DNA of 64,000 nucleotides from Candidatus Saccharicenans sp. (GCA_030017715.1 JASEIU010000004.1:139456-203455), one strand, 5' to 3'. Positions 7,901 through 50,613 are shown, counted from the first letter of the stretch. Notes: a model not told the origin generated them from the letters alone. Program-made: numbers and translations.

Positions 7901-10900
7901 GGAAAATTGCAGCTTCAGACTGTGGTCAGGGGCGACCTCGAGGAGCCACTGATTGAAGGCTCAGGGACGATGGAAGAAGTGTTTTTGAGAATGCAGGACC
8001 TGCCCCTTATTCTGAGCAGCGCCAGCGCCAGGTTCAGGGTTGATAATTCACAGCTGGTGCTGGACAGCCTGACCGGGCTGGCCAACTCAGGCAGTTTTTC
8101 CGGCTCCGGCCGGGCTGTATTCGGACAGAATTTCTCGCTGACCTCGGCCAGAATTGATTTCAATCTCCGTGATTTTGATTTCAATTATCCGCCGGGCTTA
8201 AGCAGCCTGTCCGAAGCCAGCCTGGTTCTGAGCAAAGACCGGCGGGGCTGGGCTCTTGCCGGCGACCTTTCCATCCTTAACGCCAGCTACCGACAGGATT
8301 TTTATCCGAGCACTCAGGGCCTGAAGATGGCGTTGAGCAAAGTCTCTCCGGTCGGAACAGAATACCCGGCTTTTCTTTATGACCTACCGCTTGATATCAA
8401 TATCAGGACCATCGAGAACATAATAATCAAAAATAACCTGGCCGACCTGGAACTAAAGGCCAATCTGAACCTCAAGGGGACGATTCCCGCGCCCATTCTT
8501 TCTGGACGGGCTGAAAACGCCTACAGCGGCGAACTGATTATTGGCGAGCGAAAGTATGCCGTGGAGAGGCTCCGGGTGGACTTTCTCGGCCGGGAAAATC
8601 TCGAACCCAACCTGGACATCTTTCTTAAGAGCACGGTCTATGACCTGGAGGAAGAAGTTGAAGTCAGCCTGGTGATGTCGGGAACTCCGTCCGACTTAAA
8701 ATTCTCGCTGACCTCAGTTCCGTCCAGGTCGCAGGAAGACCTGGCCTCGCTTCTCCTGACCGGGAAAAGCCTGCGCCAGGTTCAGGGTTCTGCCCTGAAT
8801 ACCATCAGCGGACAGCTGGTCCAGCATTTTTCCAGCCCCCTGACTTCGCCCGTGACCAGGACCCTGAAAAAATGGCTGAAAGCGGAGGATGTGATCCTGG
8901 AGCCCCTGAATATCGCCACCCTTCAGGACCCCGGGGCCAGACTGACTGTCAGGAAAAGGATGACCAGAGACTTTGCCGTGACTTATTCCATCGACCTGAC
9001 CAACAGCCAGTACCAGACCTGGATTCTCGATTACCGCTTGAAACGGAATTTTTCGACCCGGGCCTTCCGCCGCGACGACGGAGTGGTCGGCTTGAACCTC
9101 AGGCACAGGCTCAATTTTGGACAGACGGCAAAAAGCGGTGGTCAGGCGAAAATCATAACCAAACAGTTGAGCCGGATTGAAATCAGCGGAGAAACTATTT
9201 TCTCCGAAGAACAGCTGACCGGGGTTGTGAAATTGAAGCCGGGGCGCAGGTACCGGACCTCCGCCATCCGGCAGGCCCGGAACCGCCTGGAAGCTTTTTA
9301 CCGGAAACAGGGCTATCTGAATGCCAGGATAGAGGATGAGGTAATCGAACAGGATGAAAACAATCTTGACTTGAAATTTTACATCCAGGCCGGTCAGCCA
9401 GCCGGATTCAAGTTCACTGGAGATAAGCTCCCGGCCAGAGTCAGAAAAAAAGCCATTAATTCCTGGGTCGGACGACTGCCAGAAGAAGCCAACCTTTATC
9501 AGCTGAAAGCTGTTCTGCTCAACGAACTTAACCGGCGGGGTTATTATAAGGCAGAGGTCAACCTGGTCAGAAAGCCCGAAAAAGGTCAAGTCCTGTACGA
9601 AGTTTCAACCAGACTTAACGGCCGCTGGAAGGTCGGAAGTTTCAAGCTGTCCGGGGACCCGGTTTTCAGGGAACCGGTTATCAGAAAAATCGTTTCTGAC
9701 TATTTTGGGGCCAGGGCCAGAGGGCTATGGAACCTGGTCTATGACCGCAAAATAGCCCTGGAGCTTATAGAATACTTTTATCAGGAAAACGGCTACCTCT
9801 CACCGAAAATTGAAGCCCCGGTGATAGAAGAGAATGACCGGAAACGCCTCCTGGACCTGACCTTGAAGATTGAAGCCGGGCCCAGAAGCCAGGTCGATTC
9901 TCTGGAAATAACCGGAAACTCCAGCTTCCAGACGGCCGAGCTGACTCGGATTTTGAACCTTCAGCCCGGCAGCGTTTTTAGCTGGCCGGCACTAAATGAG
10001 GATCGAACCGTTCTTCAGAACCGCTACCGCAGCGCCGGCTATAAGGATGTCAGGGTGGAGATAGAAGCCAGGCCGGCGGGCGAAAAGGCTGATTATGAAG
10101 TTAAAATCAATATAGAGGAAGGGCCTGTTTACACCATTTCCGGCATCGACGTTGAGGGAGCCAGGCGCACCCGGAAATCTTTTGTCCTGAAGGAAAGCGG
10201 CCTCAAGCCGGGCGAGCCGGTTAGCCTGGAAAAGCTGGCCCAGGCCCAGAAAAATCTCTATGATGCCACCAGCTTCCAGGCGGTAAATGTTTCCTCTGAA
10301 GCCGAGAGCAGCCCCGGGCACCAGGAGAAAGTCCGGGTCAGGGTCCTGGAAATGCCCTGGCTAAGCCTGACCTACGGTCTTCAGTATAACACCGATACCA
10401 GATTCGAGGGTTTTACCCAGTTTGATTTTAACAACCTCTTCGGTCGGGGATGGCATAGCTTGCTGTATTTCAGGGCCAACCAGAGACAGCAGGACGCCCG
10501 GGCCTCGCTCAAGATACCTTACCTTTTCGGCCGCAAGCTGGACTCGCTGCTGTCGCTTTTTTATCTGAAGGATATTAGAGACCTTTACATTACCGAGGAA
10601 ATAGGGGCCAGTTTTCAGCAGAAAATCATGATTGTCCGGGGATTTGACCTGAGCTGGGTATACCGTCTGAGCCGGATCCATGATTATGAACAGGAGCCTT
10701 CCTGGCCTTTTCCTTATGATATCAGGGTCACCAGCTCCGAGCTCTCCCTGCTGCTCAGTCGGGACACCCGCGACGACCGATTCGACCCCCGACATGGCAG
10801 CCTGCTGACTGGAAGCTTGAGCTATGCCCCGCGCTATCTCGGCTCCGACCTGAATTATGTCCGTTCTTTTACCCAGTTCACCATGTACAGGTCGGTTCTG

Positions 10901-12138: not shown

Positions 12139-12378
12139 ATGGTCAAAAAGAAAAAAGCAAAACCGGCAGCCAGGAAGCCGGTGAAGAAAGCAATGAAGAA
12201 AAAAGCGGTAAAAAGGACAGTCAAGAAAGTGGCCGCCCCGACCCCCAAACCGGTGACGGCTCTGGAATGCCGGATTTGCGGCTACCGATTGATCATTGAC
12301 CGCCAGTGCGGCTGTGCCGAAGGGCATGTGATGGTTTGTTGCGGCCAGCCCATGGAAAAAACAGAGACTACGGTCTGA
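12139..12378 (+). CDS. small protein with a Lys/Ala/Pro-rich (histone H1-like) N-terminus and a Cys-rich C-terminus (putative metal-binding)
   Basis: A strong RBS precedes it. The N-terminus is MVKKKKAKPAARKPVKKAMKKKAVKRTVKKVAAPTPKP and the C-terminus is CRICGYRLIIDRQCGCAEGHVMVCCGQPM. It sits immediately upstream of a CDF metal transporter gene. Confidence 0.5.
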   Translation: MVKKKKAKPAARKPVKKAMKKKAVKRTVKKVAAPTPKPVTALECRICGYRLIIDRQCGCAEGHVMVCCGQPMEKTETTV

Positions 12379-12466
12379 TTCCCGGCCCGGTTTCGGCTGA
12401 GTTAAAGCCTGAGGTTCAGGCTCATCGAGAGGAGGAGGATTTTTTTATGAAGAGGCTGGTCGCCAG

Positions 12467-13357
12467 ATGGCAGTAACTTTCGCTCAGAAAAAGAAGCTGG
12501 CCTATTATGAGGGCTACCTCTCAATTTTTATCAATCTTGGTCTCTTCCTGCTCAAGTTCCTGGTCGGGCGAAAAGTTCAGTCGGTGGCCATGGTGGCCGA
12601 CGCCTGGCACACTCTGTCCGATTGCCTGACTTCTATAATCGTCGTGGTCGGTTTCTGGATGGCTTCCAGGCCGGCCGACAGCCGTCATGCCTTCGGCCAT
12701 GGCCGTTCCGAGTCGATAGCTTCCGTCGTCATCGGCACCCTGCTGGCCGTGGTTGGCTTCAGTTTTCTCTATGAATCGGGAGTCAGACTTATTCACCGCC
12801 AGGGGATGGGTTTCAGCCGGCTGGCAGTAATCGTATTCGCTGTTTCAGCCGTCCTGAAAGAGGGGCTGGCTCAATTTGCTTTCTGGACCTCCAGAAAAAC
12901 CGGCGCCGGTTCGCTGCGGGCCGATGCCTGGCACCACCGTAGCGATGCCGTAGCTTCGGTGCTGATCGTGGCCGGAGTACTTTTCAGCCGGCAGTTCTGG
13001 TGGCTGGACGGCGTGCTGGGAGCCGGGGTCTCGCTATTAATTCTTCACGCCAGTTATGACATCGTCAGAAGCTCGGCCAGCTACCTGATGGGAGAGGTGC
13101 CGTCCGAGGAAAAGGTGAGTCGGGTTCACTCCCTGGTGAAAAAAGAGTTTCCGCAGCTGGACGGCATTCATCATGTCCATGTGCATCAGTACGGCGACCA
13201 TCATGAGGTAACAGCCCACCTGACCGTTCCGGGAACCATGTCGGTGGACGAAGCCCATACCATTGCCAGCCGGATTGAAGAGATCGTGGAGCAGGAATTT
13301 AACGGGGATGCTACCGTCCATGTGGAACCAGAAAAATCGGACAAAGACGAAAACTGA
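12467..13357 (+). CDS. cation diffusion facilitator (CDF) family divalent-metal efflux transporter
   Basis: Six predicted TM helices carry the paired HxxxD motifs (AWHTLSDCLTS, DAWHHRSDAVAS). A His-rich cytoplasmic C-terminal domain is present (HHVHVHQYGDHHE). Confidence 0.85.
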   Translation: MAVTFAQKKKLAYYEGYLSIFINLGLFLLKFLVGRKVQSVAMVADAWHTLSDCLTSIIVVVGFWMASRPADSRHAFGHGRSESIASVVIGTLLAVVGFSFLYESGVRLIHRQGMGFSRLAVIVFAVSAVLKEGLAQFAFWTSRKTGAGSLRADAWHHRSDAVASVLIVAGVLFSRQFWWLDGVLGAGVSLLILHASYDIVRSSASYLMGEVPSEEKVSRVHSLVKKEFPQLDGIHHVHVHQYGDHHEVTAHLTVPGTMSVDEAHTIASRIEEIVEQEFNGDATVHVEPEKSDKDEN

Positions 13358-23917: not shown

Positions 23918-25633
23918 TTACTTTCTTATTATCTTCAGCAGCCTGTCAACGGTCAGAGTGTTAATCACATCTTTTCTGGTCAGCCAGGCCCGGCGGGCGA
24001 TTCCCAGCCCGAAGCGCATCATGGCGAACCCGTGGGCATAGTGGGTATCGGTGCCGATGGCGATCGGGACTCCTTTCTCCCGGGCCTTTTTCAGATTGTG
24101 TTCGTCAAGGTCCAGGCGGTCGTAATAGGCGTTCAGCTCAAGGAATTTTCCATATTGGGCCGCGGCCGCGATTACTTTATCGATATCCACTTCATAACCC
24201 TCACGGCCAGAGATAAGCCGACCGGTCGGATGCCCGATAACCTGCACCAGGGGGTTTTTAATTGCTGAAATGATTCGCTCGGTGACGTTTTTCTTAAAGC
24301 CGGAATGGATGGAAGCCACCACCAGGTCAAGCTTCCTGAGTAAACTTTCCGGAAAATCTATTGAGCCGTCAGCCAGGATGTCCGCTTCCGTTCCCTTGAG
24401 CAGGCGGAAGCCTTTCAATCTGGCATTGATTTTATCAATTTCTTTGATTTGCTCGGCCAGCCGCTCGGGAGTCAGGCCATGAGCGTATTTTGCCGACTGG
24501 GAATGGTCGCAGACGGCTATATAACTATAACCCATCTTTTTCCCATGTTCGACGATTTCTTCCAGAGTCAGCACTCCGTCGCTCCAGTTAGAATGCACGT
24601 GCAGGTCGCCCCTGATGTCTTTGAGCTCAATAATTTCCGGAAGCTTTCCCTCCAGAGCCAGCTCGATTTCGCCGCGGTCTTCACGCATCTCAGGTGGAAT
24701 AACCGGCAGGCCAAATACCTTATAAACTTCCTCCTCGGTTCGGCCGGCAATTTTTTTCTCGCCCTTAAAAACTCCGTATTCGGATATTTTTAAGCCTCTG
24801 TCTTTGGCCAGTCCGCGCAGTTTAATGTTATGAGCCTTTGAGCCGGTAAAATACTGCAGGGCCGCGCCGTAAGCATCCTCTTCTACGATTCTCAGGTCAA
24901 CCTGACGTTCTCCCATTTCTGTTTCTATTAGAATCGAGCCCTTGGTGTCGCCTTCGGCCAGAATATTGATGGTCCGGGGATGCTTGACGAAGTGCTTGAT
25001 GATTGCAGGCCCGTCTTTTCCCGTCGCCAGGATATCAATGTCCCCGACGGTCTCCTTCATCCGCCTCAGGGAACCGGCCGGGGAAATATGATTGATCCCC
25101 GGGGCTTCCTTCAGGTAGTCCATAACCTCTTCTGCTATAATCAGAGCGTCACATATGGACATTCTTTCATGGGCCTGTTCGGTCAGTTCTATTCCCTTTT
25201 TTATGTTTTCCACTTTCTTTTTGCCCATTCCATAAAGCTTTTCCAGGCTGCCGTCTTTGATAACCCGCTTCAGGTCATCCAGGTTTTTGACCTTCAATTC
25301 TTTGTTCATCAGGTGGATGGTCCGTCCACCCAGACCCGGAATTTCCAGGAGCTGCAGGAGACTCTCGGGCACATCCCTCATAACTTCTTCGTAGCGCTTG
25401 ATTCGGCCTGTTTTAAGATATTCTTCAATTTTTTCGGCCATGCCCTTACCGATACCGGGGATATCAGCCAGCTTGCCGGAAGCTACCAGCTCGGCCACAT
25501 CCTGAGTGAGATCTTCCAGAATCCGGGCCGCTCTTTGATAGGCTACAACCTTGAATCCGGTTTCACCTTTGATTTCCAGAGCGTCGGCGATACGATAGAA
25601 AAGGCTGGCTATTTCTTTATTTCTGTTTTCCAT
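23918..25633 (-). CDS. DNA polymerase X family protein with C-terminal PHP phosphoesterase domain
   Basis: The N-terminal Pol beta-like HhH region is FKVVAYQRAARILE..ADIPGIGKGMAEKI. The nucleotidyltransferase motif is GSLRRMKETVGDIDIL. The C-terminal PHP domain contains DLHVHSNWSDG. Confidence 0.9.
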   Translation of the reverse strand: MENRNKEIASLFYRIADALEIKGETGFKVVAYQRAARILEDLTQDVAELVASGKLADIPGIGKGMAEKIEEYLKTGRIKRYEEVMRDVPESLLQLLEIPGLGGRTIHLMNKELKVKNLDDLKRVIKDGSLEKLYGMGKKKVENIKKGIELTEQAHERMSICDALIIAEEVMDYLKEAPGINHISPAGSLRRMKETVGDIDILATGKDGPAIIKHFVKHPRTINILAEGDTKGSILIETEMGERQVDLRIVEEDAYGAALQYFTGSKAHNIKLRGLAKDRGLKISEYGVFKGEKKIAGRTEEEVYKVFGLPVIPPEMREDRGEIELALEGKLPEIIELKDIRGDLHVHSNWSDGVLTLEEIVEHGKKMGYSYIAVCDHSQSAKYAHGLTPERLAEQIKEIDKINARLKGFRLLKGTEADILADGSIDFPESLLRKLDLVVASIHSGFKKNVTERIISAIKNPLVQVIGHPTGRLISGREGYEVDIDKVIAAAAQYGKFLELNAYYDRLDLDEHNLKKAREKGVPIAIGTDTHYAHGFAMMRFGLGIARRAWLTRKDVINTLTVDRLLKIIRK

Positions 25634-25750: not shown

Positions 25751-27256
25751 ATGAAAATCATACTGGCCGGATATAATTTTGACGCTGAGGTAATAGAGGA
25801 ACTGAAGAGACATTGTCCTGAGCGCCAGGATGTTACTCCGGAGACGCTTTCGGCGGCCTACGCCCGTATCTCCCGCGACCCACGCCCGGTGGATGAGCTC
25901 AGAGCCGTGGCCCGGGCTGAAGTGGAAAGGGCCCGCCGTTCCAACCAGAATATAATTTTCAAGATGGGCCATCACTCGGTGGCCGAGCATGCCGTCTTCA
26001 ACTTCGACCTGATCGGCCTGAGCCGCCTGGCCATCGAGGAAGTCGAGCATTTCAGATTATGCTCTTACACTGAAAAGTCGCAGCGCTATATCACTCTGGA
26101 CGGGGACTATGTTCTTCCCGAGGAGATAAAGCAGGCCGGGCTGCAAGGAGTTTTTGCCGAAACCATAGAGATTCAGAACCAGGCCTATCGCTATTTTTAT
26201 GAGCGGCTGCGAGAGCACATTTTCGAGAAATACAAGGAGCAGGCCGCCAACCCTAAAAATCATCCCATCCTTGACGGCTGGGCCAAGGAAGATGCCCGCT
26301 ACGTGGTCAGCTTAGCCACCAGGGGTCAGCTCGGAATGACCGTTAACGCCCGTAACCTGGAGCTGATGATCAGGCGTTTTTCAGCCCGAAGGAACGCCGA
26401 AATCAGAGAGCTGGTCCGCCAGCTCCATGATCAGGCTAAAAAAGTAGCTCCCTCAATCATCCTGTTTACCGACCCCTCTTCTTATGAGGCAGAAATGATG
26501 GACAATGTGCGGGAGGAGGCTCTGCGGCTTCTGGCCGGCCGCAGGAAAGCAGCGGGCGGTCGCAAACAGCTGCACAAAATCCGGCTGGTGGAATTTTCCG
26601 AAAGAGGAGACGACCTTATAATTGCCGGCCTGCTGTTTTCCACCAGCGGACTTTCCTTCAAAAAAGCTTTGGAGGAAGTAGGCCGCTGGTCCGAAAAAAA
26701 GAAGCTCGACCTGGTGAAGAAAGTGTTTGAATACCTGGAGTTTTATGATTCGCCGCCGCGGGAGTTTGAAATGGCTTTTCTGACTTTTGACCTGGTGGTA
26801 TCGGCTTCCTGCTTTGCCCAGCTCAAAAGGCACCGGATGATGACCCTTCTGGTTCAGCCATACGACCCGGCCCTCGGGGTCACCGTTCCGCCCTCCATCA
26901 GAGAAATCAAAGAACAGAAGAAATTCAAAGAAATTATCAAACAGACTGAAAAGACCTGGCGGATTCTAAAAAAGAAAGCCGGCCCGGCGGCCGATTACAT
27001 TCTCACCAATGCTCACCGCCGGAGGGCGCTGGTGAAAGCCAATGTGCGGGAGCTGTATCATCTGTCGCGGTTGAGGGAAGATGCCACCGCCCAGTGGGAA
27101 ATAAGACAGGTAAGCGCAGCTATGTCAGCCCTGGCTCGTCGGGTTTTTCCTCTTACCGCCTGCCTTCTCGGCGGTAAGGACAGCTATCCGCAGCTTTATA
27201 AAAAACTTTTCGGACATCCGCCGAAGATGATGCCGCCTTCCCTCTTCTTTGATTGA
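25751..27256 (+). CDS. ThyX-like (flavin-dependent thymidylate synthase family) protein with two tandem ThyX-fold halves
   Basis: The first half has ..HSVAEHAVFNF..EVEHFRLCSYTEKSQRY... The second half has ..FDLVVSASCFAQLKRHRMM.. and ..NVRELYHLSRLREDATAQWEIRQV... Both resemble the ThyX RHR..S..SQRY region and helper helices. Confidence 0.6.
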   Translation: MKIILAGYNFDAEVIEELKRHCPERQDVTPETLSAAYARISRDPRPVDELRAVARAEVERARRSNQNIIFKMGHHSVAEHAVFNFDLIGLSRLAIEEVEHFRLCSYTEKSQRYITLDGDYVLPEEIKQAGLQGVFAETIEIQNQAYRYFYERLREHIFEKYKEQAANPKNHPILDGWAKEDARYVVSLATRGQLGMTVNARNLELMIRRFSARRNAEIRELVRQLHDQAKKVAPSIILFTDPSSYEAEMMDNVREEALRLLAGRRKAAGGRKQLHKIRLVEFSERGDDLIIAGLLFSTSGLSFKKALEEVGRWSEKKKLDLVKKVFEYLEFYDSPPREFEMAFLTFDLVVSASCFAQLKRHRMMTLLVQPYDPALGVTVPPSIREIKEQKKFKEIIKQTEKTWRILKKKAGPAADYILTNAHRRRALVKANVRELYHLSRLREDATAQWEIRQVSAAMSALARRVFPLTACLLGGKDSYPQLYKKLFGHPPKMMPPSLFFD

Positions 27257-28143: not shown

Positions 28144-28191
28144 TCGGTAATATGAAAATGGTGTCAGCCATTGGCGTTTAGGATAAACTTT

Positions 28192-28203
28192 GTATTGTAA
28201 TAC
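28192..28203. promoter_or_regulatory. imperfect inverted repeat GTATT-gt-AATAC abutting the controller gene start (candidate C-box/operator)
   Basis: 5-bp arms with a 2-bp spacer, 5 nt upstream of the ATG at 28208. No SD is visible before this ATG. TATAAT overlaps the start codon. Confidence 0.35.
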
Positions 28204-28207
28204 TATA

Positions 28208-28429
28208 ATGTCAAACGAAAAAACAAAAATAGCCAAAAACACCAAGAAGCTGCGGAAGCAACGGGATTTGTCGCACGAAAAGTTATCCAAACTTGCCGAT
28301 ATTTCACATAATATGATAATCAAAATTGAGTCCGGGGCGATTCAAAGCCCGACAATAGAAACAGCCCAAAAAATCGCCAGGGCGTTAGGGGTTACTTTGG
28401 ACGATTTAATGAAAGAAAATCATGACTAA
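28208..28429 (+). CDS. XRE-family helix-turn-helix transcriptional regulator (putative R-M controller, C-protein-like)
   Basis: The 73-aa product has a classic HTH (LRKQRDLSHEKLSKLADISHNMIIKIESGAIQSPTIETAQKIARALGV). Its stop overlaps the methyltransferase ATG by 8 nt. ORF 28190 begins at an upstream TTG; ATG 28208 is preferred. Confidence 0.8.
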   Translation: MSNEKTKIAKNTKKLRKQRDLSHEKLSKLADISHNMIIKIESGAIQSPTIETAQKIARALGVTLDDLMKENHD

Positions 28430-30905
28430 AGAACAAAAGTTTTACAAGGCATTACAGGATGTATTCATCGGCGCCAGGATTGAAGGCGAAGGCGGTTTTG
28501 TCAATTTGATGAGGATTAAATCAAGTTACTACCGTCAAATTGAAGATATTCTTAAAAAAGATATTGAAACCGCACTAAGTAGCTACCCGGCATTCAGGGA
28601 CGAACTTTTTGACAAGCTCTATTCATTTTTCAGCCGTTACTTTACGGAAAGCGGATCAATATATTTCAACCAAACGCCTTTTCATAATAATATTTATGAA
28701 AAAATTTATACCGATGAAAAGGATGTTATTCTCTTTTGGAAAACGCAGATGCTCTACTATGTCAAAACCGACCGGATTTTTAAGAGTTTGCCGGTTGAGT
28801 TTGACGGTTTCAAAATTTACTTTGACGCTTCAAAAATAGAAAACAAAAAAGCCAATGAAAAACGCTCGCTTGTTTTTGAGCTGAATGATGTCAAGGAAGA
28901 CGGCACGATTGTTTTCGGTGTTTTATATTCTGAAAAAGGGACAAAAACAAACCAAGACGAGATATTAAAAGCAATAAAGAGAAAAGGCATTGCCATTACC
29001 GAAGACCAATTGGAGCGTGCCTTTAGGGTTTTTGAAAAGCAAAGCGAGGTTGATTTCTTTATTAACAAAAATGCTAAAGCATTTTTGCAGGAACAGTTTA
29101 AGCTCTGGAGTTATCAGTATTTCTGGGAAGGGGCCAAAGAATGGAGTGCAGATAGAGTTAATCAACTGCAAAATCTCAAAAACATTGCTTTTAAGATTAT
29201 TGATTTTATCTCGCAATTTGAAGACGAACTGGTAAAAATCTGGAACAAGCCGAAGTTTGTAAAAAACTCAAATTATGTGATTACGCTGGATAGAATAATA
29301 AGTCAAATCTCAGAAGGCAAAAATCAACACTTGGAATTGATTGAGAAAATTTTTAACCATCCTAATATAAATGAGCAAATAAGGGAATGGGAAGAACTTG
29401 GGATAATAGAAGAAAAGTCAATAGTTAAAAATAAATTTTCAAAATTCAGAGGGAAAGAATTAAAGTTGATAGATGAGATATTTGAAAACACACTGGAAGG
29501 CAAGAGACTTAAAAAAGAATACGTACACCTGCCAATTGATACTAAGTATTTCAAGGATTTGGAGTTTCAGATACTGAGCCAGTTTAATGATTTGGATAAG
29601 TCATTAGACGGCTGGCTGATAAAAAGCGAAAACTACCAAGCGCTAAATACAATCCTTCCAAAATTCAAAGAAAAAGTGCAGACAATTTATATTGATCCGC
29701 CATTTAATTTAGATTCTTCTGACCAGTTTTTATATCGCACAAATTACAAAGACGCTAACTGGGCAACTTTGCTTGAAAACAGATTAAGAATTGCGAAAGA
29801 TTGGCTGAATGAAAAAGGAAGCATTTTTGTAAGGTGCGATTCAAACGGAAATTGGATAGTAAGGTTTTTAATGAACGATGTTTTTGATAACAATTTAAAG
29901 AATGAAATTGCTGTTAAAAGAACCCGCACATTGAAAGGGGAGAGAGGGCGTTTTCATACAGCGTGGGAATCTCTTTATTTCTACGCAAAATCAGAAAACG
30001 CAATTTTTAATGGTTTTAGGAAATTGAAACCAGAAAGCGAATGGCAATGGGTAGAAATGCACTTACCTGGGACTAGAAAAGACGAAGATTTACTTTATAG
30101 AAACTTTTTTGGAAAAAGACTAAAAGCACCGGAAGGACGAAGATGGGCATTAAGTCAGGATGCCTTGGATGATGCTATTTCAAAGGGATTGGTTAAAATG
30201 GATGAACAAACTGGAATGCCCAAATTCCTTACAAAATGGGAAACGCTCGGTTCTAACTGGACAGATATTTCTGGATATTCCCCAGCGCATGGTTTTACAA
30301 CAGAAAATTCAGAAGAATTATTACAGAGGGCAATAGAATCTACTTCTAATAAAAATAGTTTGGTTCTTGACTTCTTCCTTGGCTCTGGCACAACAACAGC
30401 CGTAGCTCATAAACTTGGTAGAAAATGGATTGGCGTTGAGATGGGAGAGCATTTCTATAGTGTAGTTTTGACGAGAATGAAAAAGGTCTTGGCTTATGAT
30501 AAAAGCGGGATTTCAAAAGAAGTCAAAGAATATCAAGGCGGCGGGTTTTTCAAGTATTATGAGCTGGAGCAATACGAGGAGGCGCTGGCAAATTGTAAAT
30601 ATGAAGATGGTGATTTATTCAATGCGCCCGGCAGAAGTCCGTACCAGGAATATGTCTTTATGAAAGATGAAAAAATGCTCAAGGCGTTGGAGATTGATTA
30701 TAAAAAAGGGAAAGTCAAAATTGATTTATCAAAACTCTATCCGAACATAGACATTGCCGAAACATTGTCTAACCTGACAGGAAAATGGATTAGACAAATC
30801 AAAAGTCAAAACTTAAAAATCAAAAGTGTGGTGTTTGAGGATGGCAACGAAATTGATATTGAAAACCTTGATTATAGACTAATTAAGCCATTGATTTGGT
30901 GGTAG
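28422..30905 (+). CDS. beta-class N6-adenine/N4-cytosine DNA methyltransferase (Type III Mod-like) with ~420-aa uncharacterised N-terminal extension
   Basis: Motif IV TIYIDPPFN (aa ~425) precedes motif I LVLDFFLGSGTTTAVAHKLGRKWIGVEM (aa ~650). A ~220-aa putative TRD lies between them. This order (IV before I) is diagnostic of beta-class amino-MTases such as Type III Mod. Confidence 0.85.
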   Translation: MTKEQKFYKALQDVFIGARIEGEGGFVNLMRIKSSYYRQIEDILKKDIETALSSYPAFRDELFDKLYSFFSRYFTESGSIYFNQTPFHNNIYEKIYTDEKDVILFWKTQMLYYVKTDRIFKSLPVEFDGFKIYFDASKIENKKANEKRSLVFELNDVKEDGTIVFGVLYSEKGTKTNQDEILKAIKRKGIAITEDQLERAFRVFEKQSEVDFFINKNAKAFLQEQFKLWSYQYFWEGAKEWSADRVNQLQNLKNIAFKIIDFISQFEDELVKIWNKPKFVKNSNYVITLDRIISQISEGKNQHLELIEKIFNHPNINEQIREWEELGIIEEKSIVKNKFSKFRGKELKLIDEIFENTLEGKRLKKEYVHLPIDTKYFKDLEFQILSQFNDLDKSLDGWLIKSENYQALNTILPKFKEKVQTIYIDPPFNLDSSDQFLYRTNYKDANWATLLENRLRIAKDWLNEKGSIFVRCDSNGNWIVRFLMNDVFDNNLKNEIAVKRTRTLKGERGRFHTAWESLYFYAKSENAIFNGFRKLKPESEWQWVEMHLPGTRKDEDLLYRNFFGKRLKAPEGRRWALSQDALDDAISKGLVKMDEQTGMPKFLTKWETLGSNWTDISGYSPAHGFTTENSEELLQRAIESTSNKNSLVLDFFLGSGTTTAVAHKLGRKWIGVEMGEHFYSVVLTRMKKVLAYDKSGISKEVKEYQGGGFFKYYELEQYEEALANCKYEDGDLFNAPGRSPYQEYVFMKDEKMLKALEIDYKKGKVKIDLSKLYPNIDIAETLSNLTGKWIRQIKSQNLKIKSVVFEDGNEIDIENLDYRLIKPLIWW

Positions 30906-32404
30906 GTATGGTAAAATTTAATCTATATAAAATTTATCCCGGTCAGCGAGAAAAACTTATAGAGAAGCTTAATTCTGTGGGGCTTACTAAGATAGGCAGT
31001 AAGAATATAGACGGTTTTTCTCTAGATTTTTATTTTTCAGACGAACCCGACTCCATTGATATTTGGTGGACTGATATTTATAAGGAATTTTTCGGAGAAG
31101 TAGAGAAGCCAAAAAACAAAATTTACTTCGCAACCCTACTTGTATATAATACCCAAATTGTTTATGCGGTTAGTCTTGGCAAGTCACATTTTTATTTAAA
31201 ACACTTTTGCGATGGTGATTTCGGGCTTAATTTAGCGGAAAGAATCGCCGACGAGATAAATCCAAAAATGAAAAATTCAAAGTTTTACAAAAGCCGTAAA
31301 AACAAGATTATTACAACCTATCAGGAAGGTAGCGGAATTGATTTTGATAGCGGAGAATCACTCCATTATTTGCGAGCTAAAACGATCGATAAAGACAATT
31401 GGGGTAAAACTGCAAGTTTTGGACATTCAGCTCAATTTAGTATTGAGATTAAACCCGAAGATCTACCAGATTTTATAAAAAAGATTGAAGAAACTCTAAA
31501 ACAAAAATCACGAATAAAATTGCCAAAGGTAATAGTTGCGCGGGATGAAGAAACGAAAAATAAACTTGATAATTTACTCGCCAGGGTTTTAATGGGATCG
31601 TCCCAATCATTTACGGTGCAAGAAAGTGATATTACCCTATCGGGTGTAGATTTTATATTTTCTGACCAATATGAATATAGCTTTTATTTGAGGGGAGATC
31701 GCGATTCTCAGACTGATAAGGGAGAACTTACATTAGATCGGCTGAGGCGGTTTATTTCAGAAAAAAATATCAATCTAGAAACACAACTTAACGATGTGAA
31801 AGTAAAAGTCCACAATGAGTTTGGCAGAGATTTTTCTGTTTCGCTTAAGGAGACGTTGGACTTTATAGACGAAAAAGAACGATATTGTCTTATTGACGGT
31901 AAGTGGTATCAATTTAACCAATCATATTTGGATTTCTTAAAAGAGGAAGTTGATAGTATTGATTTTAAGGAGCAGGAGGAAATCGGCGATAAGACAGAGC
32001 AGGAATTCAACCAAAGAAAAGGCCGAGAAGGATTTGTTAATTGTGATAGATTAAATGAATCTTTGTGCAAAAAGTATAAGGTGGAAAAGGTAGATTTGTA
32101 TAAAGAAAAGATACTCCACTTTGTTAAATTTGGATCTCCGAAAAATATGAACTATGCTGTGGATCAAGCAATCAACACAGTTAAGCTATTGCAAAATAAC
32201 CAAAGCAAGATTCAAATCAATGACGAAGAACAAGGCGTTGAAACGATTTGTTTGTGGCTTGTTTTTGACAGAAAACAGAAACTTAACAAACTTTCAGAAT
32301 TAAACTCATTGATATTTCATATGAAATTAGCCGATTGGAAACGAATAGTGCAAAATGCCAGATATAAACCAATGATTTATGTAAGTTATAGAAAAAATGT
32401 CTAA
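30896..32404 (+). CDS. uncharacterised 502-aa protein embedded between mod-like and res-like genes (no recognisable catalytic motif)
   Basis: The start overlaps the mod stop (TTG at 30896 or ATG at 30908 after ggtggtagg). The stop overlaps the res-like ATG (32397) by 8 nt. Composition is AT-rich like its neighbours. No P-loop, HxH or clear nuclease motif was seen; LWLVFDRK near the C-terminus is only weakly (D/E)xK-like. Confidence 0.7.
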   Translation: MVVGMVKFNLYKIYPGQREKLIEKLNSVGLTKIGSKNIDGFSLDFYFSDEPDSIDIWWTDIYKEFFGEVEKPKNKIYFATLLVYNTQIVYAVSLGKSHFYLKHFCDGDFGLNLAERIADEINPKMKNSKFYKSRKNKIITTYQEGSGIDFDSGESLHYLRAKTIDKDNWGKTASFGHSAQFSIEIKPEDLPDFIKKIEETLKQKSRIKLPKVIVARDEETKNKLDNLLARVLMGSSQSFTVQESDITLSGVDFIFSDQYEYSFYLRGDRDSQTDKGELTLDRLRRFISEKNINLETQLNDVKVKVHNEFGRDFSVSLKETLDFIDEKERYCLIDGKWYQFNQSYLDFLKEEVDSIDFKEQEEIGDKTEQEFNQRKGREGFVNCDRLNESLCKKYKVEKVDLYKEKILHFVKFGSPKNMNYAVDQAINTVKLLQNNQSKIQINDEEQGVETICLWLVFDRKQKLNKLSELNSLIFHMKLADWKRIVQNARYKPMIYVSYRKNV

Positions 32405-35342
32405 ACTTTATTTACAAAACATCATAGATGATATTTCCTTTGAAAACTTGCCGGTCAAGTGGCAGGGGTTTGATTTTAGCCGATTTTCAAAAGACAAGAC
32501 ACTTTTTGATTTTCAAAAGAAAGGTTTGCAAAACGCGTTGAAAACATTGCATCTGTATTTTAAGGATAAAAACGGAGATAAAAAAGCATTATTTGATCAC
32601 TACAAATTTAATGGCCTGGAAGAAGATTTTGATTATGATTTAAAGAAAAAACAAGATAGCAAGATTGCAAAATATCTGTTGGAATACGATAAAGATTACC
32701 CAGTCATCGATAAAAAAATTTCCTTTGTTCATTTTATTAACCGGATGAGTTTTTGGATGGCCACTGGTTCGGGTAAAACGCTGATTATAGTTAAGCTGAT
32801 TGAGCTTTTGGGTAAGCTGATTGCCGAAAAAGAGTTGCCGGCGCGCGATATTCTCTTTTTAGCCCACCGCGATGATCTTTTGGACCAGTTCAAAAACCAT
32901 GTTGAAGAATTTAATAGCTTTAACTTTGACAGAAAGATAAACCTTAAAAGTCTGCGGGATTACGAAAACGTTAAGCGCGATAATCCTTTGCCGTTTACCA
33001 AAAATGGGATTAATGTTTTTTATTACCGTTCCGACTTGATTTCCGATGAACAGAAAGAAAAAATCGTTAACTTTCAAAACTATGACAACAGCGGGCGGTG
33101 GTATATCCTTTTAGACGAAGCCCATAAGGGCGATAAAGAAGACAGCAAACGACAAATTTTATACTCCATACTTTCAAGAAACGGATTTTTGTTTAATTTT
33201 TCTGCGACATTTACCGACCCAAGGGATTTTGCGACCTGCGCTTTTAACTTCAATCTTTCAAGGTTTGTAGAAGAAGGTTACGGCAAGCATATTTATGTGT
33301 CTTCGGCCGAGATCAGCGGATTTCGCGGCCGAGGCGCTTTTTCTTCCATTGAAAAACAGAAAATCGTTTTAAAAACACTTTTGCTTTTGACCTACATCAA
33401 TAAATATTTTGAAGAAATCAGAAAGCTTAATAATTCCCTATATCACCGCCCGCTTCTTTTAACTCTCGTTAATTCCGTGGATGTGGAAGAATCCGACCTG
33501 GAGTTATTTTTTAGGGAATTAGAAAAGGTAGCGAGAAATGAAATTAGAGCGGATTCGCTTAAAATAGCAAAAGACGAACTTATCCAAGAATTTCGCCATA
33601 ACCCCAAATTCGTATTTGAAGAGTTGGAGTGCCCCATAGACGGTAATTTGGTTTCAAAATTAGATTATCAGGATATTTTGAAATATATTTTAAATGCAAA
33701 CAGGCCTGGTAAGATTGAAGTTTTGAAAATCCCCGGGAATAGGCAAGAATTGATTTTCAGGTTAATGACGTCTCATAGACCGTTTGCGTTAATTAAGATT
33801 GGCGATATTTCCAGCTGGTTGAAGAACAAACTTGAAGGATATGAGATAAATGAAAGTTTTGAGAACGAAAGCTATTTTAAGGCCATCAATTGCGATGATT
33901 CCGACCTAAATATTTTAATGGGCTCTCGCTCCTTTTACGAGGGTTGGGATTCTAACCGACCAAACCTGCTTTTGTTTGTGAATATCGGAGTTGGAAGCGA
34001 CGCAAAGAAATTCGTTCTGCAATCGGTGGGCAGAGGTGTGAGAATAGAGCCGCAAAAAAACATGAGGAAACGGTTACAAAATTTGTACAATGCTGGGATT
34101 ATAAAGGATCAGTTATTTGAGAAAGTGAAAGATTTGATTTTGCCGATTGAGAGCTTGTTTGTTTTTGGCACAAATGCTGAAAACCTGAAGGAAATAATTG
34201 CAACGCTGAAAGCAGAGAAGCAAGATGAAAATTTAGGCGACGCCTTTATTTTGAATCCGGAAGCGCAAAGACATATTCTTTTGGTGCCAGTTTATAAAAC
34301 GGCCGAGAGAATATTTGCCGAAGAACAAGTCCCGCAAAAATACGCTATCAGCCTCGAAGATTTTGAGTTGACTTCTAGATTTTATGAATTTTTAGGAGAC
34401 AAAATAATTTTGGCTAAATATGATTGTGAAGTAAATGTTTTGAAGAAGGCAAAAGATAGTTTTGAAGAAAAAGGAAGATATTATGATTTCAGCGAAAAGA
34501 ACTCTCTTTTTGATCCCGAGCTGATTCTTGGACGCATTTTTGATTATCTTGGAGTTAAAAGCAGGGAATTTGAGAAGTTTAAGAAGTTGGAAAACGAGAT
34601 CGTGCATTTCAGAAAGATTAGATTCAGCGCCATCGAAAAATACGAGGAAATAAAAAAGAAAATAGAAGTAATGAAAGAGTATCCTGAAAAGAAAAAGGAA
34701 TTAAAAGCTAAATATGGAAAGATTCCAGAAGAAGAATATAACAAGCAGTTAAAACTGTTTGAAGAAGCAGGAAAGTACGAAGTAAAAAATCAAAAAATAA
34801 AAATCAAGTATTTGGCTAATCATTACTATCTTCCGGTGATAATTTCAGAGACAGAAAAAATTGACTATCTTAATCATATTATCAATGTTGAGAGCGAAAT
34901 AAAATTTATTGAGGAGCTGGAAGAATATCTTGCCAGGTCCAAAAATGTATTTACGCAATTTGACTGGTGGATGTTTTCAAAACTTGACCAAACGCTGGAT
35001 GAAGTTTTTATTCCTTATTACAATCCGAAAGAAAACAAGATGGCCAATTTCAAGCCGGACTTCATTTTTTGGATGCAAAAAGACAATCGCTATTTAATTT
35101 TATTTGTTGATCCCAAAGGAACCGAACACGCGGATGGATATAGAAAGATTGACGGCTATTCAAGGATATTTGAAATTGAAAAAAATGGACAAAGGCAAAA
35201 TAGAGATTTTTCATACGGTAGATTTACAATAAATGCAAAATTATTGCTCAAGCCCGCGAAAGGTGGTATTGACAGGGTTCCAGAACCTCAAAGGAAATAC
35301 TGGTTTGACAACTTTGATGATTTTGCGGGCAAAATCAGTTAA
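32397..35342 (+). CDS. SF2 helicase-nuclease (Type III Res-like restriction subunit)
   Basis: Helicase motifs are I (FWMATGSGKT, aa ~120), II (ILLDEAHKG, aa ~250), III (FSATF) and VI (LQSVGRGVRIEP, aa ~545). The C-terminal PD-(D/E)xK-like endonuclease motif is FKPDFIFW..LILFVDPKGTEH (aa ~885-908). The domain order (helicase N, nuclease C) matches Type III Res. Confidence 0.85.
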   Translation: MSKLYLQNIIDDISFENLPVKWQGFDFSRFSKDKTLFDFQKKGLQNALKTLHLYFKDKNGDKKALFDHYKFNGLEEDFDYDLKKKQDSKIAKYLLEYDKDYPVIDKKISFVHFINRMSFWMATGSGKTLIIVKLIELLGKLIAEKELPARDILFLAHRDDLLDQFKNHVEEFNSFNFDRKINLKSLRDYENVKRDNPLPFTKNGINVFYYRSDLISDEQKEKIVNFQNYDNSGRWYILLDEAHKGDKEDSKRQILYSILSRNGFLFNFSATFTDPRDFATCAFNFNLSRFVEEGYGKHIYVSSAEISGFRGRGAFSSIEKQKIVLKTLLLLTYINKYFEEIRKLNNSLYHRPLLLTLVNSVDVEESDLELFFRELEKVARNEIRADSLKIAKDELIQEFRHNPKFVFEELECPIDGNLVSKLDYQDILKYILNANRPGKIEVLKIPGNRQELIFRLMTSHRPFALIKIGDISSWLKNKLEGYEINESFENESYFKAINCDDSDLNILMGSRSFYEGWDSNRPNLLLFVNIGVGSDAKKFVLQSVGRGVRIEPQKNMRKRLQNLYNAGIIKDQLFEKVKDLILPIESLFVFGTNAENLKEIIATLKAEKQDENLGDAFILNPEAQRHILLVPVYKTAERIFAEEQVPQKYAISLEDFELTSRFYEFLGDKIILAKYDCEVNVLKKAKDSFEEKGRYYDFSEKNSLFDPELILGRIFDYLGVKSREFEKFKKLENEIVHFRKIRFSAIEKYEEIKKKIEVMKEYPEKKKELKAKYGKIPEEEYNKQLKLFEEAGKYEVKNQKIKIKYLANHYYLPVIISETEKIDYLNHIINVESEIKFIEELEEYLARSKNVFTQFDWWMFSKLDQTLDEVFIPYYNPKENKMANFKPDFIFWMQKDNRYLILFVDPKGTEHADGYRKIDGYSRIFEIEKNGQRQNRDFSYGRFTINAKLLLKPAKGGIDRVPEPQRKYWFDNFDDFAGKIS

Positions 35343-48706: not shown

Positions 48707-48779
48707 GCCAGCGTAGCTCAGCCGGTAGAGCAGCTGATTTGTAATCAGCGGGTCGGGGGTTCGAATCCCTTCGCTGGCT
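48707..48779 (+). tRNA. tRNA-Thr (anticodon TGT)
   Basis: A 73-nt cloverleaf was folded by hand. The acceptor is GCCAGCG/CGCTGGC, the D-arm GCTCAGCCGGTAGAGC, the anticodon stem GCTGA/TCAGC with loop TTTGTAA, and the T-loop TTCGAAT. Confidence 0.85.
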
Positions 48780-48822
48780 CAGAAATAGAAAGCAGGCCTG
48801 GCCTGATAGGGAAGACCGGTAT

Positions 48823-48905
48823 GGGCAGGTACCAAAGTGGCCAAATGGGGCGGGCTGTAAACCCGCTGCGGAAACGCTTCGGAGGTTCGAATCCTTCCCT
48901 GCCCA
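48823..48905 (+). tRNA. tRNA-Tyr (anticodon GTA), class II with long variable arm
   Basis: An 83-nt fold. The acceptor is GGGCAGG/CCTGCCC, the anticodon stem GCGGG/CCCGC with loop CTGTAAA, the long variable arm CTGCGGAAACGCTTC, and the T-loop TTCGAAT. Confidence 0.85.
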
Positions 48906-48913
48906 TTTTTGAT

Positions 48914-48986
<73 letters not shown>

Positions 48987-49005
48987 TTCTAAGAACTGAA
49001 GTTAA

Positions 49006-49078
49006 GCCCAAGTAGCTCAGTTGGCAGAGCACGTCCTTGGTAAGGACGGGGTCACCAGTTCAAATCTGGTCTTGGGCT
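49006..49078 (+). tRNA. tRNA-Thr (anticodon GGT)
   Basis: A 73-nt fold. The acceptor is GCCCAAG/CTTGGGC, the anticodon stem CGTCC/GGACG with loop TTGGTAA, and the T-loop TTCAAAT. Confidence 0.85.
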
Positions 49079-49117
49079 TTTATAAAAAATTTGCCTGGCT
49101 CCTAGGAGGTAAAAGAG

Positions 49118-50320
49118 ATGGCCAAGGAAAAATTTGCGAGGACGAAGCCGCACGTTAACATAGGGACGATCGGGCACATTGATCACGGGAAGACGACGTT
49201 GACTGCGGCGATCACCAAGGTGTTATCGACGAAGGGGTTGGCGCAGTTCAAGCCCTACGATGAGGTGGCGAAGGCGGACGCCAAGATGTTTCGTCGGGAC
49301 GCGACGAAGATCCTGACGGTGGCTCTGTCGCACGTGGAGTACGAGTCGGAGAAGAGGCACTATGCGCACATAGACTGTCCGGGGCACGTGGATTACATCA
49401 AGAACATGATCAGCGGGGCGGCGCAGATGGACGGTTCGATTCTGGTGGTGGCGGCTGATGATGGGCCGATGCCGCAGACGAGGGAACACATCTTGCTGGC
49501 TCGTCAGGTGGATGTTCCGGCGATCGTGGTTTTTATCAACAAGGTGGACCTGGTAGATGATCCTGAGATACTGGACCTGGTGGAGTTAGAGGTCAGGGAG
49601 CTGTTGAGCAAGTATGAATTTCCTGGAGACAAGACGCCGGTGATACGGGGCAGCGCGACCAGGGCGATGGCCGATCCTGAGGGAGAGGGTGGCAAGCCGA
49701 TCTGGGAGTTGATGAAGGCGCTGGACGAGTTCATACCGGAGCCGGTGCGGGAGATAGACAAGCCGTTTTTGATGAGCATAGAGGATGTTTTTTCGATAAC
49801 TGGCCGTGGGACGGTGGTAACGGGCAGAGTGGAGCGGGGGATAGTCAAGGTAGGTGATGAGGTGGAGATAGTAGGCTTTGGGGAGACGAAGAAGACGGTG
49901 GTGACCGGGGTGGAGATGTTCCGGAAGATTCTGGACCAGGGGCAGGCGGGAGACAACGTAGGTTGTTTGCTGCGTGGCATAGGAAAGGACGAGGTGGAGA
50001 GGGGGCAGGTTCTGGCCAAGCCCGGTTCGATCACGCCGCACAAGAAGTTTCGGGCGCAGATATACGCTTTGACCAAGGATGAGGGCGGGCGGCACACGCC
50101 GTTTTTCACTGGTTACCGGCCGCAGTTTTATTTTCGGACGACCGACGTGACCGGGACGGTTAAGTTACCGGCGGGGGTGGAGATGGTGATGCCCGGGGAC
50201 AATGCCAACGTGGAGGTGGAGCTGATCACCACGGTGGCCATGGAGAAAGGCCTGAGGTTTGCCATCCGCGAGGGCGGCCGGACGGTGGGCGCCGGAACCG
50301 TCACCGAAATTTTGGAATAG
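49118..50320 (+). CDS. tuf: elongation factor Tu
   Basis: The N-terminus is [37 protein letters not shown] and NKVD motifs are present. The RBS is aggaggt. Confidence 0.98.
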
Positions 50321-50370
50321 AACTTCAGCCGCCGACTTCTGGTTGAATTCAGTGATAAGGAAATAGCGAG

Positions 50371-50520
50371 ATGCGGGAAATAATTACTCTCCAGTGCTCG
50401 GATTGCAAGCGTCGCAATTACAGCACCACCAGGAACAAGAAGAAGCAGACCGAACGGCTGGAAATAAAGAAATTTTGTCCGTTCTGCCGCAAGCATACAC
50501 TGCATAAAGAAGTTAAATAA
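50371..50520 (+). CDS. rpmG: 50S ribosomal protein L33
   Basis: This 49-aa ORF is below the ORF-track size cutoff. The product is [49 protein letters not shown] with the L33 zinc-ribbon CxxC..CxxC. It sits between tuf and tRNA-Trp, as in many bacteria. Confidence 0.85.
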
Positions 50521-50536
50521 TGACTGACCGGACTGA

Positions 50537-50613
50537 GGGTGAGTAGCTCAATTGGCTAGAGCAGCGGTCTCCAAAACCGCAGGCTGCGGGTTCGAGTCCT
50601 GCCTCACCCGCCA
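50537..50613 (+). tRNA. tRNA-Trp (anticodon CCA), CCA encoded
   Basis: A 77-nt fold. The acceptor is GGGTGAG/CTCACCC, the anticodon stem GCGGT/ACCGC with loop CTCCAAA, the T-loop TTCGAGT, and a 3' GCCA. Confidence 0.85.

Follow-up and report, generated by a model that had tools for sequence, protein, structure and literature searches.

A DUF6119/TIGR04141 gene between mod and res of a Type III restriction-modification cassette in Candidatus Saccharicenans as a candidate nuclease-type defence gene

The subject of this work is a gene of the DUF6119/TIGR04141 family found in a 64,000-nucleotide stretch of a Candidatus Saccharicenans sp. genome (GCA_030017715.1 JASEIU010000004.1:139456-203455; the whole stretch is called the window below, and positions are counted from its first letter). 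It stands third in a low-GC operon of four genes, all on the + strand, in the order helix-turn-helix (HTH) controller, Type III modification methyltransferase (Mod), DUF6119 protein and restriction subunit (Res). The mod gene, 28422..30905, encodes a Type III DNA methyltransferase of 827 amino acids (aa) that is matched by N6_N4_Mtase (E=1.1e-36) and, over its full length, by the PADLOC model MTase_III PDLC03638 (E=2.6e-279), and its motif IV DPPF and motif I FLGSG are separated by a variable region that resembles a target recognition domain (TRD). The res gene, 32397..35342, encodes a Type III-like superfamily 2 (SF2) helicase of 981 aa (Pfam ResIII, E=1.7e-19; PADLOC REase_III, E=1.1e-25) with the motifs TGSGKT (Walker A), DEAH and QxxGRxxR and with a C-terminal nuclease motif of the PD...(D/E)PK kind, KPDFIFW...LFVDPKG, in which D888, F889, L902, F903 and G908 are invariant between the window Res and five homologues. 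The location of the gene between a mod and a res gene, which an earlier sequence-only reading of the same DNA had described, is confirmed by these assignments.

Judged by their motifs, Mod and Res carry full sets and look complete without the DUF6119 protein. Since Res has its own nuclease motif, the DUF6119 protein is not needed as the nuclease of a Type III system, and we rejected it as a candidate for a missing one. We also rejected the idea of a Type II-like endonuclease cognate to Mod, as the protein has no region co-varying with the methyltransferase and exists in solo copies with no methyltransferase beside them. As to Res itself, it has no NCBIfam match, its PADLOC Type III restriction endonuclease match is weak and partial (residues 283-561), and its homologue in one related locus, L063, carries a PF27151 (YagJ) match; a divergent Res lineage is paired here with a well-modelled Mod.

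The first gene of the operon, 28208..28429, was missed by the sequence-only reading and encodes an XRE/Cro-type protein of 73 aa (Pfam HTH_3, E=1.3e-16), which is probably the C (controller) protein of this cassette. The stop codon of the gene overlaps the mod ATG (ATGACTAA), and the same HTH gene precedes mod in the homologous loci L006 and L063 (loci with homologues are given L numbers throughout). A small palindrome, GTATT-GT-AATAC, is placed at ~28191-28202, just upstream of the HTH gene. The low-GC stretch that holds mod, the DUF6119 gene and res extends over ~28.0-36.0 kb, with a GC content of 0.35-0.40 vs 0.50-0.56 in the flanks; the values for the single genes are 0.357 (mod), 0.337 (DUF6119) and 0.358 (res), so the AT-rich composition that had been noticed by eye is indeed common to the island. 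At the island borders no flanking direct or inverted repeats, tRNA, integrase or recombinase were found in the window. The cassette was most likely acquired horizontally, and the DUF6119 gene is most likely co-transcribed and translationally coupled with the R-M (restriction-modification) genes.

The open reading frame (ORF) in question runs from a TTG at 30896 to 32404 and would give 502 aa, as first described; the frame itself is present, and what needs revision is its start. An ATG at 30908 stands 2 nucleotides (nt) past the mod stop (TAG 30903-30905), where the sequence reads GGTGGTAGG ahead of it. Because the junction 'TGGTGG-stop-ATGGC', unlike the TTG, is conserved in the homologous cassettes of L006, L010 and L011, we rejected TTG 30896 as the start codon and consider ATG 30908 to be most likely the true one, with a product of 498 aa (30908..32404). 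It follows that the claimed overlap with both neighbours stands for res, by 8 nt (ATGTCTAA), and probably does not for mod. Compared with three cassette homologues, the gene has a ratio of non-synonymous to synonymous substitution (dN/dS) of 0.08-0.10 at a synonymous divergence (dS) of 0.8-1.0, and it is for this reason a genuine protein-coding gene under strong purifying selection and not a chance ORF. In the same partner genomes the dS of the DUF6119 gene is about half of that of mod and res (1.6-1.8), which could reflect a codon or composition constraint or a more recent exchange of the middle gene.

The product belongs to a catalogued family. It matches Pfam PF19614 (DUF6119) with 104.3 bits and E=8.4e-30 (cut-off 27) and NCBIfam TIGR04141 with 80.2 bits (cut-off 35), contrary to the earlier statement that it fits no named family, and the words with which it had compared the protein, sporadically distributed proteins of ~500 aa, proved to be literally the name of TIGR04141. 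This exact protein is already annotated in this way, as NCBI MDI6699117.1 from a metagenome-assembled genome of Candidatus Saccharicenans sp., titled 'TIGR04141 family sporadically distributed protein'; the family is without a characterised representative. A word-indexed search gave 260 relatives, all of them with PF19614, from Nitrospirota, Bacteroidota, Legionella, cyanobacteria, Patescibacteria, Firmicutes and other hosts, and when 1.84 billion cluster representatives were searched exhaustively with a profile, 791 clusters (50% identity) were found at E<=1e-3, whose full-length members are all of ~500-570 aa, align end to end and have no domain fusions, with the representatives aligning over positions 1-499. 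In plasmid and phage collections the family is rare (2 plasmid records, 3 weak phage matches), so the gene is not one typical of plasmids or phages. None of 5,426 complete Escherichia coli genomes was matched by the island in a megablast search.

Anatomy of the protein was studied on an AlphaFold2 model for which 41 aligned sequences were used (mean predicted local distance difference test, pLDDT, 82) and on a second model of aa 246-498 alone (pLDDT 81), and conservation on an alignment of 118 members that are 22-85% (median 30%) identical to the window protein. The full model consists of a beta-rich N-terminal domain (aa 1-230, 30908..31597), a disordered linker (aa 231-245, 31598..31642) with pLDDT <50 and variable alignment columns, and a C-terminal half (aa 246-498). 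The N-terminal domain, in which N5, W54, G91, F105, G149, E150, G172, S174 and P206 are conserved across the family, has a weak structural likeness to TBP-like and CYTH-like sheets, and nucleic-acid binding or sensing may be its role. The C-terminal domain proper (aa 336-498, 31913..32401) has a predicted restriction-endonuclease-like alpha-beta-beta-beta-alpha-beta topology. The matches kept by the model of aa 246-498 are SfsA (7.0), CdiA-CT (6.7/6.6), FokI (6.5), NucS (6.3), BglII (6.3), OkrAI (6.2), HamA (6.1), BamHI (6.1), AF1548 (6.0), N.BspD6I (5.8), LlaBIII (5.7), EcoT38I (5.3) and BstYI (5.2); as it keeps only nuclease-like ones, the nuclease-like signal is assigned to the C-terminal domain and the TBP/CYTH-like one to the N-terminal domain.

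Other searches were silent. Foldseek, which had been suggested beforehand as a check, was run with the full model against the Protein Data Bank (PDB) and assigned no family, with no match at E<=1e-3. Sequence searches of the PDB with the 41- and 118-sequence profiles gave nothing meaningful (sole match topoisomerase I, E=0.12), Pfam searches at E<=10 on 29 C-terminal halves consistently returned DUF6119 alone, and hhalign of the DUF6119 family against the Res family, aimed at aligning their putative nuclease motifs, gave a probability of 0.06. A pattern scan for Walker A, Walker B, HxH and CxxC found none in the protein, in line with what had been seen by eye for Walker and HxH motifs, and a Pfam scan of it found no SRA, EVE, YTH or Mrr_N match and no Methylase_S or other TRD-like match.

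The candidate active site spans 31997..32167 on the + strand and comprises E364 (31997-31999), E393 (32084-32086), D396 (32093-32095), K407 (32126-32128) and Y416/D419/Q420 (Q420 at 32165-32167). Only D396, K407 and Q420 are invariant among the 118 members; E364 and E393 are conserved at 99%, and V406, Y416 and D419 at 80-93% (D419 at 80%). In the predicted structure the first helix begins with E364. E393 and D396 come at the start of the second strand (397-399), the third strand (402-408) has K407 as its last residue, and Y416, D419 and Q420 lie on the helix after it, ahead of strand 446-453. Enzymes of the PD-(D/E)xK superfamily are built in alpha-beta-beta-beta-alpha-beta order, and the DUF6119 residues are placed as expected for it. 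A nuclease fold of the C-terminal domain, of a divergent PD-(D/E)xK-like kind, is by these models probable, not proven. The sequence-only reading had suspected a (D/E)xK core in the segment LWLVFDRKQK: the region near the C-terminus was roughly right, the residues were wrongly picked, since the DRK (aa 454-456, 32267..32275), located where the fourth core strand (446-453) ends, is poorly conserved (D/E 66%, R 68%, K 45%). Its more general suggestion of an effector role is plausible, given the fold signal and the invariant acidic, lysine and glutamine residues.

Closest relatives of the gene, at ~79-85% identity, are the only ones found in the HTH-Mod-DUF6119-Res cassette, and their hosts are distant from each other: Paceibacterota, Zixiibacteriota and Thermodesulfovibrio. 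The same cassette is present in L010 and L011, and L006 and L063 have extra cargo, M78 peptidase, DUF4411 and Fic/RhuM genes, between DUF6119 and res (L063 8946-11691; L006 9695-12357). Of res, L006 retains only remnants: one ORF of 43 aa (9490-9621) and a tblastn match of 54 aa (12357-12518). In the Mod homologue of L063 (3715-6999, 1094 aa) the N6_N4 methyltransferase is fused at its N-terminus to a DUF559 (Vsr-like endonuclease) domain.

It would be natural to take a protein in this position for a third subunit of the Type III enzyme, giving it specificity, sensing or gating, as the sequence-only reading did, and the 8-nt overlap with res together with the movement of the four-gene cassette between phyla as a unit, with ~84% identity in the DUF6119 protein, is in keeping with that. 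The same cassette homologues, however, argue against it. Mod varies among them in two segments (aa 281-360 and 481-640, identity 0.28-0.6), whereas the identity of the DUF6119 protein is uniform, 0.67-0.91 per 40-aa window with no hypervariable segment, and therefore the DUF6119 protein does not track specificity; it also lacks any TRD-like Pfam match, Mod and Res have their motif sets complete, and members of the family occur outside Type III systems as well. Unrelated cargo in the same junction of L006 and L063 means that the mod-res junction behaves as a slot for embedded genes, and it appears to be an insertion hot spot. With neither obligate co-occurrence nor co-variation with Mod, we regard a true subunit of this enzyme as very improbable.

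Outside of the cassette the genomic partners of the gene vary widely. Type III linkage is limited to the relatives of at least 79% identity and to L021, with the order Mod, Res, DUF6119, and L027, in which a classical Type III Mod (TypeIII_RM_meth domain) is followed by DUF6119 and then Res; the L027 Mod matches that of the window only over a 110-aa tblastn segment (39%), and the DUF6119 proteins are ~41% identical. The other relatives are linked to Type I or Type IIG enzymes, solo, or beside other defence genes. In L026 a Type I HsdR gene precedes DUF6119; in the Legionella loci L001 and L012 Type I HsdM-S-R genes are followed by DUF6119 and by a 1139-aa SF1 helicase, with gaps of ~25 nt; in L066 the order is Type I HsdR-M-S, DUF6119, then YhcG and SduA_C genes; and in L030 a Type ISP/IIG-like methyltransferase and Vsr come before DUF6119. 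The 1139-aa protein (L001 9530-12949, L012 9524-12943) combines RNase_H_2-like and Upf1-type SF1 helicase domains (AAA_11/AAA_12). The gene-neighbourhood survey thus found that homologues accompany methyltransferase and helicase genes in R-M systems of several independent types, and a protein whose relatives never meet such genes, the outcome that would have spoken against the sequence-only reading, is not what it revealed.

Adjoining R-M genes are lacking in about one half of the closer homologues and in practically all of the distant ones, which are alone or beside other defence systems such as Lamassu, Gabija or Qat. Solo copies are those of L003, L014-L016, L018 and L065, and the cyanobacterial ones are solo beside dnaG or Uma2 genes. 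L020 follows QatC/QatD-like genes, L054 follows a cyclase and SAVED effector of a cyclic-oligonucleotide-based anti-phage signalling system (CBASS), and L067 lies beside a Gabija-like pair. The Pseudomonas/enterobacterial clade has no R-M neighbour anywhere, and its enterobacterial copies follow two radical-SAM genes. In a set of 54 species-representative loci, an abutting same-strand run includes an R-M gene in at least 7, and about half have no close same-strand neighbour. PADLOC, applied to 140 neighbours of the loci without R-M, returned LmuB, PDC-S03, CBASS cyclase/SAVED, QatC/D, GajA, DrmD, BrxH, MADS, PbeA, PsyrT, PD-Lambda-2, several PDC families and others, which places the family in defence islands. 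In a neighbour-joining tree the R-M-linked members are scattered, and L066 (Type I) and the solo L065 are sister to the Type III clade of the window.

In the enterobacterial loci L048-L052, L058 and L059 (~4.5-7.9 kb) we observed that a conserved same-strand block always precedes DUF6119. It consists of a ~92-aa protein, two radical-SAM proteins (~462 and 370 aa) and a 237-aa protein with PG_binding_1, and could be an uncharacterised multi-gene system; the two radical-SAM proteins are probably the source of three weak pVip-like PADLOC matches.

From this analysis it would be logical to suggest that DUF6119, genetically embedded in R-M operons, is a nuclease-type defence gene whose one protein is self-sufficient and does not belong to the Type III enzyme, and we give this interpretation an even chance. 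Its independence of any particular R-M system is indicated by the scatter of R-M-linked members in the tree, by the Type I sister and by a Mod and a Res that look complete alone. The gene would then be a modular one, repeatedly captured in, or appended to, several types of restriction operon, in keeping with what Payne et al. 2024 described for embedded defence genes (10.1101/2024.01.29.577857). Its C-terminal domain may perform a metal-dependent cleavage of nucleic acid, with E364, E393 and D396 as putative metal ligands, K407 as the catalytic lysine and Q420 in support, and its N-terminal domain may select the substrate, for instance modified or otherwise foreign DNA in a Type IV-like manner; the phenotype would be anti-phage.

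Several observations weigh against this interpretation. The literature search on DUF6119, PF19614, TIGR04141 and 'sporadically distributed protein' gave incidental mentions only and no paper with a phenotype. The family has no model in PADLOC-DB v2.0.0 (best match PDC-M13B, E=0.011, 13.7 bits, with no stretch passing alone). The canonical (D/E)xK is lacking, the residue two before K407 being F, A or S, so the second carboxylate must come from elsewhere, E393 or D419. PD-(D/E)xK variants whose acid has moved to an adjacent element are known. Finally, about half of the closer clade is R-M-linked, and the DUF6119 start lies only 1-4 nt from the preceding R-M gene in the window, L006, L021, L063 and L066.

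The missing canonical motif leaves room for a protein that is not catalytic, or not defensive, at all: a DNA-binding or regulatory factor, or a hitch-hiking mobilome or addiction gene, whose conserved polar residues bind a ligand. A phytoplasma preprint calls TIGR04141 'commonly associated to mobilomes' (10.1101/2021.05.31.446484), and the Manganitrophus copy, L065, is indeed carried by a mobile element with coupling proteins of a type IV secretion system (T4SS) and a resolvase. Against this, invariance of D396, K407 and Q420 and ~99% conservation of E364 and E393 at so low a median identity are typical of a catalytic site, the family is scarce in plasmids and phages, the window has no repeats or recombinase at the island, and the neighbours are overwhelmingly defence genes; in our opinion such a protein is improbable.

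The tight junctions have another implication. Spacings of 1-4 nt in independent R-M contexts are tighter than island co-residence and could mean functional coupling, and the main rival to an autonomous defence gene is an R-M-coupled guard or back-up effector, comparable to PrrC: a latent nuclease held by the neighbouring Type I HsdMSR, Type III Mod2Res or Type ISP complex, which would be set free once that complex is blocked by an anti-restriction factor of a phage, or would make a second cut when licensed by the translocating motor. With spacings of 1-25 nt, the gene is embedded in or appended to operons of Type I, III and IIG/ISP, whose enzymes are all of the helicase/translocase type, two Type III lineages far from each other, those of the window and of L027, have the order mod-DUF-res, and the mod-DUF6119 pair persists where res was displaced or lost (L006, L063). 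PrrC gives a precedent of an effector that is almost exclusively Type I-embedded (10.1101/2024.01.29.577857). Against such coupling stand the many homologues with no R-M neighbour, such as the solo copies of cyanobacteria, the one in the mobile element of Manganitrophus and all of the Pseudomonas/enterobacterial clade, and the partner type switches between close relatives, so any interface would have to be generic. We consider this guard possible but unlikely. Somewhat more doubtful still is its broadest form, in which DUF6119 would be a generic plug-in effector for ATP-dependent restriction enzymes of Type I, III and ISP, a latent nuclease that either guards the R-M complex and fires once phage anti-restriction proteins put it out of action, or is licensed by its stalled or translocating motor; if true, it would represent a widespread second line of immunity, hard-wired into restriction operons by translational coupling.

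For the family, which counts ~800 clusters over many bacterial phyla, has no functional literature that we found and no PADLOC model, the candidate catalytic constellation E364, E393, D396, K407 and Q420, the defence-island context and the compact four-gene cassette are what this analysis provides. Both kinds, the embedded defence gene and the single-protein nuclease effector, are known already, and an autonomous DUF6119 nuclease, if its phenotype is confirmed, would add one more single-gene nuclease defence; a dependence on the adjoining R-M would point rather to a general guard mechanism for restriction systems.

Outside of the island the window is occupied on the left by housekeeping genes, ThyX (25751-27256, + strand, 501 aa with two Thy1 stretches, an apparent internal duplication) and a PolX-PHP polymerase (23918-25633, - strand). 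A tRNA cluster at 48707-50613 (Thr-Tyr-Gly-Thr, then Trp), in an arrangement typical of the tuf/secE-nusG region, is unrelated to DUF6119.

Compared with PF19614/TIGR04141, the window protein is an ordinary full-length member of the same ~500 aa and the same single architecture, and nothing in it differs. Canonical Type III operons contain mod and res only. The flanks of the DUF6119 gene fit an EcoP15I-like Mod2Res system, with a Mod, a Res that has helicase and PD..(D/E)xK parts and an HTH controller in front; DUF6119 is not a recognised component of such systems, and its family extends beyond them. To the PD-(D/E)xK nucleases that serve as defence effectors or as Type II/IV restriction enzymes (BglII, BamHI, the FokI cleavage domain, NucS, SfsA, CdiA-CT EC869, Hachiman HamA and the Mrr/MspJI type) no sequence-profile relationship of the protein was found, and its motif reads E..ExxD..(x10)..VK..YxxDQ vs PD..(D/E)xK. 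Its layout, with a nuclease-like C-terminal part and substrate choice placed in the N-terminal one, recalls the Type IV enzymes Mrr and MspJI, although membership is not claimed and a modified-base reader domain (SRA, EVE or YTH), as in Type IV enzymes, is not detected.

PrrC, which comprises an ABC-ATPase head and an RNase, has no sequence or fold relationship to DUF6119, in which Walker A, Walker B and any matching Pfam ATPase are lacking, and PrrC is almost always embedded, whereas DUF6119 is often solo. What the two share is the genetic arrangement: as in the Type Ic hsd locus EcoprrI, a foreign effector gene is nested among R-M genes and co-expressed with them. Most genes embedded in this way are themselves defence genes, as was shown under the name 'guilt-by-embedding' by Payne et al. 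2024, in whose supplements, over the parts that were available to us, DUF6119 and TIGR04141 do not occur, and who screened Hma, bacteriophage exclusion (BREX), DISARM (defence island system associated with restriction-modification) and Type I systems and not Type III (10.1101/2024.01.29.577857), and the DUF6119 cassette extends this idea to Type III operons.

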